Positions 1,469 through 5,898 of a stretch of DNA of 7,099 nt are shown here, piece by piece; the stretch's first letter is position 1, and every line of letters starts with the position of its first letter. Position numbers and translations under genes: made by a program. This DNA comes from a virus (Duplodnaviria; Heunggongvirae; Uroviricota; Caudoviricetes). The notes beneath the pieces were generated by a model. The model was not told the origin of the DNA and searched no databases. It saw only the letters and a list, made by a program, of their open reading frames with translations. The stretch lies in the IMG/VR virus record IMGVR_UViG_2541047432_000025, one strand, 5' to 3'.

Positions 1469-1887
1469 TTCTCAATCTCTCGATGGCGCAGTGCAGCAGA
1501 TGCCAGTTGTTCAAGCTAGCACGCAAATTGTAAACCAGAATGCCAGGAAAAAACAAAACCCGCCGAAGCTGGTTGTGTGCGGTTGCGTTGAAGTCTCCTA
1601 GCCAAAGAGTAGCGGTGACCACTCCCCGCCGATAATCTTAGTTGTTTAATTTCGTAAGCTAACTAGGCTAAAAGCTCTCTGTTGTCTGCCTGTTGTACAA
1701 TTAACAAAATGAACAACGAACTAGATATACCAACGCCAGAATGGTGCAACAAATCCCAAACAACACAGCAATGCAACAATAACATATGTTATTTTCCTCT
1801 CACGGGATTCAGTCCTGAATTCTCATAAAGCTAATCTTTTTTTAAAAACATACTGTTAGATCACATGCACTTTCTTTCTTAACATCG

Positions 1888-1915
1888 TTGACTTCGCATG
1901 CGAAGCGTTTAAAAT
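1888..1915 (+). promoter_or_regulatory. Sigma70-type promoter for the GHKL-ATPase operon, with a palindromic candidate operator in the spacer
   Basis: -35 TTGACT (1888-1893), 16-nt spacer, -10 TAAAAT (1910-1915). The spacer holds the perfect 14-bp palindrome CTTCGCATGCGAAG (1892-1905). An A/T tract lies upstream near 1830-1850. The ATG at 1968 is preceded by a weak GAGAG Shine-Dalgarno. Confidence 0.5.
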
Positions 1916-1967
1916 CAACAATTTGCACTTAAGGTATTTATTTTCCCAAACACATAGAGAGTAAATT

Positions 1968-3359
1968 ATGACTGAGAACACGACTCCAACAGCAGACTTT
2001 AGTCCTAGTAAAAGATTTTTTGTAAGTATGCTAACTCGAGATATCGACTTAAACGATGCCATACTTGATCTGCTTGATAACTGCGTCGATGGGGCTTTAC
2101 GTACAATAAAAGACACAAAAAAAACTTCAAAACCATATGAAGGATTTTATGCGAAACTTACGATTAATAAAGATGTCTTTATTATAGAAGACAATTGCGG
2201 AGGTATCCCTAAAAGCTTCCGAGAATATGCTTTTAAAATGGGACGACCCCATCAAAAAGAAGAAGAAAATGAAGGCACCGTTGGCGTCTATGGTATTGGT
2301 ATGAAAAGAGCCATTTTTAAAATGGGTAGAGATTGCTCAATACAATCGAATAATCCCGATGGCGCATTCACTGTAGATATAACACCTGATTGGATCGATG
2401 GTGATGGTTGGAAAATACCGATGCACGAGAGTGACTATGATAACAAAAATCCAACAGGCACAACTATAGAGATAAAAAAACTCCATTCTAATGTGGCACA
2501 AAAATTTAATGAGAGCACATATCTTACTGATCTCTTTTTACAGATAAAACACTCATTGTCATTTATTATTCAAAAAGGATTTAAAATAGAATTAAATGGA
2601 GTTGTTGTTGAACATAATCCGATTAACATCATAACTGATCATTCTAAAATAGAACCATACATATATAAAGCTAAAATAGACGATGTTGATATCGATTTAG
2701 TTGTTGGCTTCTATAAAAATTTAGAAGATGACAATGATGATGTTTTAGAAAAAAGGAGTTCTGATGATGCTGGATGGACTGTCATTTGCAATGACCGCGT
2801 TGTTCTATATTGTGATAAGACACATCTCACAGGTTGGGGCTTTGCTAATGTACCAAGGTTTCATACCCAATTTATAGCAATTTCTGGGGTTGTTCGCTTT
2901 ACCAGTAAAAACCCAGAAAAATTACCAATAACAACAACGAAACGAGGTGTCGATCTTAGTTCTACATTGTACAATGATGTACGAAATAAAATGATTGAAG
3001 GGATGATGCATTTTATTCGATTCACCAATCAGTGGAAAGGTGAGCATCTTGAAGAAGGGAAAAAATTACTTAAGTCAGCTCAGTCACATGAAGCTCAATC
3101 TTTATTTGAAATTACCCCACAATCAACTCCAGAAGATAAAAAAAATAACTGGTCCAACCCTAATAGAAACAAAAATGAGTGGCGATATACACCTAAGCTG
3201 CCTACCCCAGTAAAAAAAAGCTCTACTGTACGAATAATCTTCACCAGAGAGAAAGAAGATGTTAAAATTTTATCTAAATATTTCTTTGGACATGAAGATG
3301 CTAGCGCTTCTGATGTGGGGATGCAATGCTTTGATACGGTGATTGAAGAGGTGAAGTGA
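1968..3359 (+). CDS. GHKL (Bergerat-fold, MutL/MORC-like) ATPase domain protein, 463 aa
   Basis: N-box DLLDNCVDGA (D34-x3-N38-x2-D41, nt about 2067-2096), G1 box IEDNCGGIP (nt 2190-2207), G2 box GVYGIGMKRA (nt 2283-2300) and a GTTIEI motif about 50 aa later, in canonical GHKL order. The C-terminal 260 aa or so has no motif I recognise. Stop TGA at 3357-3359 overlaps the next start. Confidence 0.85.
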   Translation: MTENTTPTADFSPSKRFFVSMLTRDIDLNDAILDLLDNCVDGALRTIKDTKKTSKPYEGFYAKLTINKDVFIIEDNCGGIPKSFREYAFKMGRPHQKEEENEGTVGVYGIGMKRAIFKMGRDCSIQSNNPDGAFTVDITPDWIDGDGWKIPMHESDYDNKNPTGTTIEIKKLHSNVAQKFNESTYLTDLFLQIKHSLSFIIQKGFKIELNGVVVEHNPINIITDHSKIEPYIYKAKIDDVDIDLVVGFYKNLEDDNDDVLEKRSSDDAGWTVICNDRVVLYCDKTHLTGWGFANVPRFHTQFIAISGVVRFTSKNPEKLPITTTKRGVDLSSTLYNDVRNKMIEGMMHFIRFTNQWKGEHLEEGKKLLKSAQSHEAQSLFEITPQSTPEDKKNNWSNPNRNKNEWRYTPKLPTPVKKSSTVRIIFTREKEDVKILSKYFFGHEDASASDVGMQCFDTVIEEVK

Positions 3360-4348
3360 TGTCTGGACAATACATTCCCTATCACTTAAGGCATAATAAG
3401 TCTATTGATAGAGAGATTTTTCTCGAAAGCCTAAACCTCTTAAGCAAAAGACTAAATATTCAAGAATATACATATATAGGTTTTGGTGGTCCGATGCTTG
3501 AAGATTTTAGAATCATGCATAATCGTATCGCTCTTTCTGATATGATTTCTCTCGAAGAACAAGAGTCTACTCACATCAGACAAAAATATAATTTGCCTTA
3601 TAATTGTATTGATTGTAAGCTAATATCAGCTCATGACTTTATTCTTGATTATAGTTTTTCTAAACCATCAATAACATGGTTAGACTATGCCTCCCCGAAA
3701 AAAATACAAACGGATCTAGATGATATACACTTACTAAGTACTAAAGTAAGCTCTTTTGATATTTTGAAGGTCACCTTCCCCATAAATCCTAGTTCTTATT
3801 ACCAACGTAGAGTTGGAGAAAGTTTAGATATTTTTAAAGAAGCTTTTATTAATTCATTAAAATCATTGCTTGGGAAAAAGTATCTTGATTTTAATCTTCA
3901 GATATCAAATGCAGATCTTTCAGATCGTAAGATTAAAGCTCTTTTAATACGAATTATTACAAACGCTTTTAGATCAGCAATAGAACGTGGTCTTTCAGGA
4001 CGTAAGGATAAGATTCAGTATTACCCATTATCCTTAAATCAATATAATGATGGCAGTCATACCATGTTGACAATATCAGGTTTTTTCTCCTCAGAACAAG
4101 AATATATAGAGTTATCTAAGGCATGCGACCTTTCTAACTGGCAATTTTATTCAACAAATTGGGAAGACGTGCAAGAAATAGCAATACCAACACTAACAAT
4201 TAAAGAAAAGATAAATTTAGATAGTAAACTGCCTGATAAAGAAGCATATCAGGCAGCCGCTGAAGAGTTCTCTTTAAACGAAAATGAACGGGATAACTAT
4301 TATAAATACTATAGGTTATACCCTAACTTCCAAAGAATTATGGTTTAA
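3359..4348 (+). CDS. Hypothetical protein, translationally coupled partner of the GHKL ATPase (329 aa from ATG 3359; ORF track lists GTG at 3356)
   Basis: ATG at 3359 overlaps the upstream TGA (TGATG), with GAGGTG Shine-Dalgarno at 3347-3352. Uninterrupted 330-codon frame, K/I/L/S-rich as expected for an AT-rich gene. No catalytic motif identified by eye. Confidence 0.8.
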   Translation: MSGQYIPYHLRHNKSIDREIFLESLNLLSKRLNIQEYTYIGFGGPMLEDFRIMHNRIALSDMISLEEQESTHIRQKYNLPYNCIDCKLISAHDFILDYSFSKPSITWLDYASPKKIQTDLDDIHLLSTKVSSFDILKVTFPINPSSYYQRRVGESLDIFKEAFINSLKSLLGKKYLDFNLQISNADLSDRKIKALLIRIITNAFRSAIERGLSGRKDKIQYYPLSLNQYNDGSHTMLTISGFFSSEQEYIELSKACDLSNWQFYSTNWEDVQEIAIPTLTIKEKINLDSKLPDKEAYQAAAEEFSLNENERDNYYKYYRLYPNFQRIMV

Positions 4349-5467
4349 ATATTCGGGCTGTACTCTTTTATTTAATAAATTGTACAGCCCCTTTAATATA
4401 TATTCAGCAACTATTGGTGACACGCTATTTCCTATTTGTCTGAAACTATGCCATTTAGTTACATGAAAGCGAAACCAATCAGGGAAGCCTTGTAATCTAG
4501 CAGCTTCTCTTGGTGTAATCACTCTTGGATGATAAGGGTGGATCGGCCTGACGGCTTGAAAGCTTCCTTTATCTCTAGCGGTTCCCGCCCTTAAAGTCGG
4601 GCAAAAACCATTTGGATCTAATCTTGTAGATCTTGAAATTTTATCAGTTTCCCCAAAAGATAAGGAAGCATAACGCTCTTGGACGATTTTGCTATGTAAT
4701 GTTCCGGTACATCCAGATATGATATTATTTTTTAACTTAGCGATCGATTCTGTATCACCAACATTCCGAGGGATCTGCCCCCATAATTTTTCATAAAATC
4801 CCCCTTTTCGATCTTTTTTAATTGTTCGCCAACTCTCAGAGTCTGATTGCCAATTGGCATCGATAATATCTGGTAATCCATACAAAGCATCTTTTACAGT
4901 AACCGGATCAATCATTTTAGGCATAAATACTTCATCTGAAATATCAAGCTTCAATGATTTTTTTACACCGATAAAAAAATATCTAGTTCGAATAGTTGGA
5001 GCACCATAATCAGATGCTTTTACCTTGATGGGATCAAGAATATCATAATCACCGCTAACCAAATTAAATGCTTTATTTCTAATGCCAGAATATTTCTCTT
5101 GCATAATACCTGGAACATTTTCTGCCAAAAAGAATAATGGCTGTAATTCTGATACTAAACGGTAGAAATGCATGTAAAGCTGATTCCTGCTATCATCAGG
5201 ATTCCCCTTGCCTATTGAACTAAATCCTTGGCACGGAGGACCGCCAATAATACCATCTATGGGCATATCGTTTTTAAAAAAACCCTTAATTATTTCTGCA
5301 TTTAGTAAAGAAACATCTTCTTGGACGTGCAAACTTCTTGGAAAATTAATTGCGTGAGTATTAATAGCATGTTGATCAATTTCAACTGCCATTTTAACAT
5401 CAAATCCAGCACGTGCAGCACCAAGACTTAGACCTCCAACGCCAGAAAACAAATCTATTACATTCAT
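4316..5467 (-). CDS. DNA cytosine-5 methyltransferase, Dcm-family (383 aa)
   Basis: Canonical m5C-MTase motifs in order: I DLFSGVGG (FxGxGG), IV GGPPCQGFS with catalytic Cys79 (nt 5233..5231), VI FLAENVPG (ENV), VIII-like APTIRTRYFFIG, IX ITPREAARLQGFPDWFRF, X GNSVSP. A variable target-recognition region of about 150 aa lies between VIII and IX. The 3' end overlaps the partner gene by 33 bp. Confidence 0.9.
   Translation of the reverse strand: MNVIDLFSGVGGLSLGAARAGFDVKMAVEIDQHAINTHAINFPRSLHVQEDVSLLNAEIIKGFFKNDMPIDGIIGGPPCQGFSSIGKGNPDDSRNQLYMHFYRLVSELQPLFFLAENVPGIMQEKYSGIRNKAFNLVSGDYDILDPIKVKASDYGAPTIRTRYFFIGVKKSLKLDISDEVFMPKMIDPVTVKDALYGLPDIIDANWQSDSESWRTIKKDRKGGFYEKLWGQIPRNVGDTESIAKLKNNIISGCTGTLHSKIVQERYASLSFGETDKISRSTRLDPNGFCPTLRAGTARDKGSFQAVRPIHPYHPRVITPREAARLQGFPDWFRFHVTKWHSFRQIGNSVSPIVAEYILKGLYNLLNKRVQPEYLNHNSLEVRV
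4355..4390 (+). terminator. Possible stem-loop terminator for the ATPase-partner operon, embedded in the 3' coding end of the convergent methyltransferase
   Basis: GGGCTGTAC (4355-4363) pairs with GTACAGCCC (4382-4390) as a 9-bp stem around an AT-rich 18-nt loop, 7 nt after the partner stop codon. The downstream run CTTTAATATATATT is only moderately T-rich. Confidence 0.25.
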
Positions 5468-5499
5468 ATAGTTGCAACGTCTCTTATTAGTTTCTATGT

Positions 5500-5529
5500 A
5501 TTATAACACAACTGTTCTTGATGTTTTAA
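5500..5529 (-). promoter_or_regulatory. Putative extended -10 promoter for the methyltransferase
   Basis: On the minus strand TGTTATAAT (plus coordinates 5508..5500) is an extended -10 with a consensus TATAAT; a weak -35 (TAAAAC/TTAAAA) lies 17-18 nt upstream. It sits about 33 nt upstream of the MTase ATG at 5467. The 8-bp palindrome GTTGCAAC (5471-5478) is in the leader. Confidence 0.4.
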
Positions 5530-5729
5530 CCCCATAAGATAACCTCATAAAGGCTATCCCTTGAAAATACCGGATCGCATAAATTTAATCTTTCAAAACT
5601 ACTTGTCTATTAATCGAGCAATTTAAGGTTGTTTTAGTCATGTCGATACCGACATAGTTAACTAAACCCATTTCATCGTCCAACAAATGGGGGTAATACA
5701 CTTTGATTTATAGTCGGGTGGGTTTTTCT

Positions 5730-5765
5730 CTATCTGCCTTTGGTGTTCATGCCCAAGGCAGATAG
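5730..5765. repeat. Imperfect inverted repeat (stem-loop) in the spacer between cargo and phage genes
   Basis: CTATCTGCCTTTGG (5730-5743) and CCAAGGCAGATAG (5753-5765) form a stem of about 12-13 bp with one bulge around a 9-nt loop. There is no U-tract on either strand, so it is not a classical intrinsic terminator. Confidence 0.3.
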
Positions 5766-5898
5766 CCTCAAGCACCCGCAGCAATTCTACTTAACTCTCC
5801 TTTTCCCGCAAACCGTTTTTATCTCCAGCGACAAATCGAATACACAACCAGCACCACCGCCATTACTGTTCCTACATTTGCGAATGCTTCAGGCCAGG

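Follow-up and report, generated by a model that had tools for sequence, protein, structure and literature searches.

Type II restriction-modification operons such as PvuII, AhdI and Esp1396I are subject to control by a controller (C) protein acting at C-boxes. Autoregulation by C5 cytosine methyltransferases carrying an N-terminal helix-turn-helix (HTH) domain is known from M.SsoII/M.Ecl18kI, M.EcoRII and M.MspI, and methylation-sensitive promoters are known from systems of the CfrBI type. Operators located between -35 and -10 are used by ribbon-helix-helix (RHH) repressors of the Arc/Mnt type, as at Pant of phage P22, and in MerR-type operators a dyad lies in an over-long spacer of 19–20 nt, with a divergent merR-family gene. 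Here these systems are compared with a perfect 14-bp palindrome, CTTCGCATGCGAAG (positions 1892–1905), in the promoter of an operon encoding a MORC-like GHKL ATPase and a Methyltransf_35 protein. The operon is part of a mobile cassette in a 7,099-nt stretch of viral DNA (IMGVR_UViG_2541047432_000025; the whole stretch is called the window below), which is 100% identical to the lambdoid prophage Sp10 of Escherichia coli O157:H7 Sakai. The initial annotation proposed that the palindrome is a repressor operator or a methyltransferase target. From comparison with related cassettes it is likely that the region functions as a sigma-70 promoter at the far left edge of the cassette, that the palindrome in it is incidental, and that control of the cassette is architectural rather than exerted through this site.

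The region lacks the defining features of the C-protein/C-box, HTH methyltransferase, MerR-type spacer and conserved-operator schemes, and has those of an ordinary sigma-70 promoter. The operon consists of ECs_1955 for the ATPase (1968–3359, plus strand; 463 aa, HATPase_c_3) and ECs_1954 for the Methyltransf_35 protein (3359–4348, plus strand; 329 aa, PF20553, Pfam E = 2e-89). It converges with ECs_1953 for a C5 cytosine DNA methyltransferase (4316–5467, minus strand; 383 aa, Pfam DNA_methylase E = 2.6e-61), the 3′ ends overlapping by 33 nt. As in C-protein systems, the module is linked to a methylase and the palindrome overlaps the promoter of its non-methylase side, and a need to delay the harmful side in a new host is expected. 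The cassette differs from them in having no C gene or HTH protein, one palindrome instead of paired C-boxes (no second similar palindrome was found within 3 mismatches in the window) and a site that is not conserved. With the HTH-type methyltransferases and CfrBI it has in common a C5 methyltransferase paired with an oppositely oriented operon and a palindrome in the regulatory region, but the enzyme has no N-terminal extension, the genes are convergent and not divergent with promoters 3.6 kb apart, and no candidate target motif is common to the spacers of the relatives. A MerR-type arrangement does not fit, as the spacer is 16 nt and no MerR-family protein was found in the cassette. For an Arc/Mnt-type repressor the operator position would be identical, and there is a strand-helix-helix module at the C-terminus of the ATPase. 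This module, however, is fused to a 460-aa ATPase, is kept in operons that provide the gene with no separate promoter, has only a weak fold assignment and does not co-vary with the spacer. The constitutive sigma-70 promoter of a prophage moron is closer: near-consensus hexamers, fixed spacing, a position at the cassette edge, conservation with the cassette across phage backbones and transcription in the lysogen independently of the phage operons are all features in common, and the differences are a spacer of 16 instead of 17 nt and a perfect palindrome in the spacer of this lineage alone.

The promoter consists of a -35 hexamer TTGACT (1888–1893) and a -10 hexamer TAAAAT (1910–1915) on the plus strand, which with the spacer of 16 nt gave 10 of 12 consensus matches in a promoter scan. 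Promoter-like hexamer pairs are not enriched in the region (19 found vs. 16.6 expected), and the evidence for this promoter is its conservation in relatives, not its match to the consensus. Relatives were graded by the identity of the ATPase protein, i.e., 87% (L093), 85% (L082/L109), 83% (L083), 83% (L094/L095), 82% (L096), 77% (L084) and 77% (L097). They collapse to six promoter lineages besides that of the window (L083 and L096 share one promoter), giving seven in all. More distant relatives (59–75% identity) were also recovered. A genome scan, a metagenome scan and two viral scans yielded nothing further in the 75–90% range beyond L109, and a search of the phage GenBank collection for further diverged lineages gave no match. 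The relatives of 77–87% identity occupy different backbones, several being in lambdoid prophages with differing neighbours and one beside umuDC-like genes. In all of them TCGTTGAC, the exact 16-nt spacer and TAnnATCA are invariant or nearly so; within this conserved block (1885–1919, plus strand; TCGTTGAC, spacer, TAAAATCA, conserved in the seven lineages) TTGAC of the -35 hexamer and TAnnAT followed by CA at the -10 hexamer are invariant. The distance from -10 to the ATG is kept at 43–54 nt.

Because the hexamers are 0.85–0.88 identical across the seven lineages while 4-fold degenerate sites among the relatives are saturated (identity 0.27–0.44, mean 0.34), the left promoter is judged to be real, with hexamers and spacing under purifying selection. 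The description of the region as a near-consensus promoter of a plus-strand operon is borne out by this conservation of hexamers and spacing, by the overlap of the ECs_1954 ATG with the ECs_1955 stop codon as TGATG, as read in the sequence, and by microarray data in which the two genes change together (see below). Homology among the relatives begins only about 20–30 nt upstream of -35, and further left the window matches an unrelated hok/gef-type locus, which means that the mobile unit has the promoter right at its edge. The useful outcomes of the analysis are a promoter pair for ECs1953–1955 (the second promoter is described below) that conservation supports, and a negative on the operator idea that, on the same comparative grounds, appears clear.

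The palindrome in this promoter was confirmed as perfect and as centred on GCATGC (1896–1901), with arms CTTC/GAAG. It had been placed exactly between -35 and -10; the hexamers and the palindrome are as reported, but the latter overlaps the last two bases of -35 and ends 4 nt before -10, in a spacer that is 16 nt and not the optimal 17 nt long. A single copy is present in the window, even with 3 mismatches allowed, and a single copy in the 50-kb prophage. On shuffling, 37% of windows contained a perfect palindrome of 14 bp or more (mean 0.50 per window). The window also has a longer one of 16 bp, 100 nt upstream (1778–1793). The palindrome alone is not beyond chance. The same is seen across the family: among 79 homologous loci with an upstream region of their own, palindrome enrichment reached p ≤ 0.05 in five, about the number expected, and the mean longest half-palindrome was 3.67 nt vs. 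3.75 expected. Similarly, GCATGC is not enriched upstream of homologues (6 found vs. 5.4 expected, 159 loci). An apparent CGCATGCG at the same distance in L137 was discarded, as it sits inside the upstream methylase coding sequence. A full-text literature search for the palindrome sequence returned no bacterial operator, only unrelated matches, e.g., NRF1 sites and primers.

Comparison with related cassettes separates the palindrome from the promoter that contains it. The aligned 14-mers of the six other lineages are CAATCAATCAGAAG, CATCCCTATCGAAG, CTTCACATTGCAAG, CTTCATCCTTCAAG, CTTAGCTGGTGAAG and CATACTTTTATCAA, with 2, 4, 4, 4, 4, and 1 of 7 symmetric pairs, respectively, in the same register, vs. 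7 of 7 in the window. None of the six is palindromic at the site, and the losses of symmetry are never compensated in the other arm. Identity of the centre GCATGC to the relatives is 0.31, i.e., at the neutral level, and among the compared spacers GCATGC and CATG are found in that of the window only. What conservation there is in the arms is mostly that of the right-hand AAG (6 of 7 lineages) and less that of the left-hand TT (4 of 7). No feature other than this residual arm conservation fits a bipartite operator, and promoter sequence preferences or shared ancestry would explain it equally well. Taken together, the palindrome is probably a lineage-specific accident in the neutrally evolving centre of the spacer, without a separate function, and it is not worth building experiments around.

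The spacer bases AAG.G (1902–1907, about -20 to -15) are kept in 5–6 of the 7 lineages despite saturated neutral sites, and could reflect a preference intrinsic to the promoter or one half of a former dyad. A different element is found in a distant enterobacterial/prophage lineage (44% ATPase identity), where an inverted repeat, TTTTGCAT-N8-ATGCAAAA, is conserved about 100–115 nt upstream of the ATPase start. It lies at 5851–5874 in L068, is also present in L215–L217, L222, L227, L229, and L251, and contains GCATGC like the window palindrome; the L068 upstream repeat, when scanned, revealed no consensus promoter. The occurrence of GCATGC in both elements may be a coincidence.

An incidental palindrome has to be weighed against the reading proposed initially, in which a dimeric protein bound at the site occludes RNA polymerase. 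The operator would be either the full palindrome, as a lineage-specific site, or a bipartite site made up of the arms (CTTC-N6-GAAG), and the binder either an RHH-like module of the ATPase, resulting in autoregulation, or a host or prophage regulator. Several observations do weigh against the palindrome being incidental and control being architectural. Within the 150 nt upstream of the gene the palindrome is nominally unusual (shuffle p = 0.04), and taking the outer CTT...AAG as ancestral, the prior for drift to fill in the four inner pairs in this register is about 1/256. The arms are 0.71 identical, above the centre and the 4-fold sites, as would be seen in a bipartite operator whose centre is not contacted. 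The last ~46 residues of the ATPase (SSTVRIIFTREKEDVKILSKYFFGHEDASASDVGMQCFDTVIEEVK; 3219–3356, plus strand) comprise an extended strand and two helices, with a motif RIxFxK...EYLF...PSxVGxxCFD that is conserved family-wide, and their best structural match is an RHH protein. The fold assignment is weak, and comparison of the module with Pfam, a PDB profile search and Foldseek found nothing; it is conceivable that it is a DNA-binding or dimerisation domain of the RHH type, as which it would be a weak candidate. Finally, the transcriptional-interference model given below for control without a repressor is pure inference. On the other hand, the centre of the proposed operator is lineage-specific, relatives keep 1–4 of 7 pairs, Sp10 contains no second site and there is no enrichment across the family, all of which speak against a repressor site. 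A host or phage regulator finds no more support, as the 50-kb prophage has no other copy within 3 mismatches (2.5 expected by chance); the cI/cro intergenic region shows unrelated repeats, and an operator for the prophage repressor was rejected on these grounds. As the initial annotation stated, no HTH domain is recognised in the cassette proteins, in which HATPase_c_3, Methyltransf_35 and DNA_methylase were the only domains found, and the intergenic open reading frames of at least 40 aa (1682–1828 on the plus strand, 1663–1785 and 5662–5784 on the minus strand) lie outside the conserved cassette. Its suggestion that a cassette protein binds through an unrecognised domain gained a candidate in the ATPase module, but the module does not co-vary with the spacer. 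The strand residues are near-identical in the window (VRIIFTRE) and in L093 (ARIVFTRE), yet the 14-mers differ at 7 positions. Moreover, conservation of the module extends to operons in which the ATPase gene lacks a separate promoter and hence any place for an operator, because in most of the family the methyltransferase gene is directly upstream on the same strand. Since the strand residues hardly differ while the spacer varies, and since the module is kept without an own promoter, it does not rescue the operator hypothesis. By analogy, constitutive C-terminal dimerisation as in MutL or Hsp90 would be the preferred role. We therefore regard an operator of any of these kinds as unlikely. It is tempting to speculate that CTTC-N6-GAAG is a bipartite operator bound by the ATPase module, so that the potentially harmful half of the cassette autoregulates without a controller protein and the O157 copy is merely the most symmetric version, but this specific form is less probable still. 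If true, the operator would show how a methylase-linked MORC-type module without a controller protein stays safe in a new host.

Two further explanations give the palindrome a role that does not involve a repressor. In the first the C5 methyltransferase has its target inside the palindrome, e.g., GCATGC or a CG-containing subsite, and methylation tunes the opposing operon in the manner of CfrBI. The palindrome is indeed GC-rich, with several cytosines in symmetric contexts, in a region of otherwise 35% GC, and a second lineage, with a methyltransferase that is 66% identical, also has GCATGC within its conserved upstream repeat. However, the target-recognition region of the methyltransferase is 62–81% identical in six close lineages and conserved no less than the catalytic core, and the same specificity is likely in the relatives for this reason. 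Their spacers contain neither GCATGC nor CATG, which are the only palindromic sites inside the palindrome of the window, and the one 4-mer common to 6 of the 7 spacers, the arm word CTTC/GAAG, does not by itself form a palindromic site. Together with the chance-level occurrence of GCATGC upstream across the family, this makes a methylation target very improbable, and the corresponding proposal of the initial annotation is not upheld. Its statement that the methyltransferase has no N-terminal extension was correct: the protein begins MNVIDLFSGVGG, motif I (DLFSGVGG) starts at residue 5 and the Pfam DNA_methylase match at residue 1. The second explanation is structural, i.e., the palindrome acts as a hairpin or cruciform, as a terminator of read-through or as the integration site of the cassette. 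Its position only ~25–35 nt inside the left boundary of the conserved cassette is compatible with this, but the folding energy is ordinary (-4.8 kcal/mol, z = -0.28), there is no T-run after the palindrome and no terminator call, no direct or inverted repeat of 8 nt or more is common to the two cassette ends, and relatives with other insertion contexts have not kept the palindrome. An Rfam search of 1450–2000 found no known RNA family. The structural explanation is largely refuted, and of the readings considered we give it hardly any credence. A functional sigma-70 promoter with an incidental palindrome remains the preferred reading.

The cassette around the palindrome is a more interesting object than the palindrome itself. 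The window is matched at 100% by about 170 other E. coli genomes, and the region is at least 99.9% identical in 173 E. coli genomes. Phage genes on the minus strand lie on both sides: a Q-type antiterminator, YbcO and DUF1367 to the left, and Ea22/DUF551-type genes to the right. The segment between them has a GC content of 32–37% vs. 48–50% in the flanks, and the compact mobile cassette spans roughly 1868–5540, i.e., ~3.7 kb. The ECs_1953 product is near-identical to PDB 3g7u (847 bits), a structural-genomics entry, whereas no sequence relatives in the PDB were found for the ATPase or the Methyltransf_35 protein. The ATPase has a GHKL ATP-binding domain followed by an S5-like domain, and its closest structures are MORC3, SMCHD1, and MORC2. 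PADLOC recognises the methylase only and not the ATPase or its Methyltransf_35 partner.

Restriction-modification-like systems in which MORC/paraMORC GHKL ATPases occur in linkage with a cytosine methylase have been described (Iyer, Abhiman and Aravind 2008, PMC2292703). The cassette ATPase agrees with these in its GHKL plus S5-like architecture and in its tight linkage to a cytosine methylase, and the difference is that the constant partner in the cassette is Methyltransf_35 and not a helicase or a recognisable nuclease. The ATPase family is large, the number of database proteins matching at E ≤ 1e-5 exceeding 5,400. Among 80 distant loci, the ATPase gene is co-located with a Methyltransf_35 gene in 75 and adjacent to a Dcm homologue in 75, and the full trio is found in 70. 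The trio is spread over many bacterial phyla and one archaeon (L053; loci L002–L081), and the usual order is methylase, ATPase and partner, all on the same strand. The convergent two-promoter layout is a derived one, found mainly in enterobacteria and their prophages. A four-gene variant occurs in Serratia L089 and L090 (5001–10662), where the genes downstream of the ATPase/Methyltransf_35 pair encode a further HATPase_c_3 protein of larger size (608 aa) and, after it, the methylase. A search of the defence-system literature found no description of the methylase/ATPase/Methyltransf_35 trio; a paper on Vibrio WonAB turned out to be irrelevant. A literature search with the locus tags of the cassette found only a comparative genomic hybridisation (CGH) paper and a microarray paper. 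The cassette of the O157 prophage is in other words a member of a large three-gene family found across many bacterial phyla.

At the other end of the cassette the promoter scan predicts a promoter for the methyltransferase gene itself (5500–5529, minus strand), made up of TTAAAA, a spacer of 18 nt and TGTGTTATAAT as extended -10. Alignment of 8 relatives shows the block T.TG.TA.A.TA of this extended -10 to be conserved. This promoter contains no palindrome and has no site in common with the promoter at 1888–1915. Comparison of the relatives shows, at the level of conservation, two putative promoters that face inwards from the two cassette ends. In the lysogen ECs1954 and ECs1955 are transcribed, and at entry to stationary phase they fall together, 2.6- and 3.2-fold, in a large growth-associated cluster (PMC2241611). 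Both the transcription in the lysogen and the joint fall are in keeping with a sigma-70 promoter that is not repressed.

Across five different lambdoid backbones the cassette always has the methyltransferase gene running in the direction of the O/P...Q early-right genes and the ATPase operon running against them. Control of the potentially harmful ATPase/partner side would more probably come from fixed promoter strengths and from convergent, overlapping transcription than from a repressor. During infection or induction early phage transcription would then reach the methyltransferase gene first and act against the ATPase operon by transcriptional interference, because the orientation of the cassette is fixed relative to early-right transcription. 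In this way the orientation together with the two promoters could give the expected order of expression without a controller.

Some minor observations concern the surroundings of the cassette and its relatives. To the left, a remnant of a hok/gef-type type I toxin gene is found at 1555–1790 on the minus strand, with DNA 78–95% identical to an annotated Hok/Gef region in another lambdoid prophage (L193, 1214–1339). Its reading frame appears broken in the window, and the 16-bp palindrome AATAACATATGTTATT (1778–1793) is in the region of its start codon. It seems that the cassette inserted into, or beside, the upstream portion of the hok/gef locus. In related prophages LexA-box-like sites (CTGT-N8-ACAG) lie about 270–290 nt upstream of the ATPase gene (L082 4712–4727, L083 4710–4725, L094 2779–2794, L084 4595–4610 and L109 4190–4205). 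The window has none, and the sites are probably tied to small adjacent genes on the minus strand. Just past the stop of the plus-strand operon, and inside the methylase coding region, is an inverted repeat, GGGCTGTACTCTTT/AAATTGTACAGCCC (within 4316–4390), with 14-nt arms that are 86% complementary and 8 nt apart; it could be a terminator or a site at which convergent transcription is controlled. Another one, CTATCTGCCTTTGG/CCCAAGGCAGATAG (in 5730–5765; 14 nt, 93% complementary, 8-nt loop), is found at the right junction, where the GC content returns to the level of the phage.
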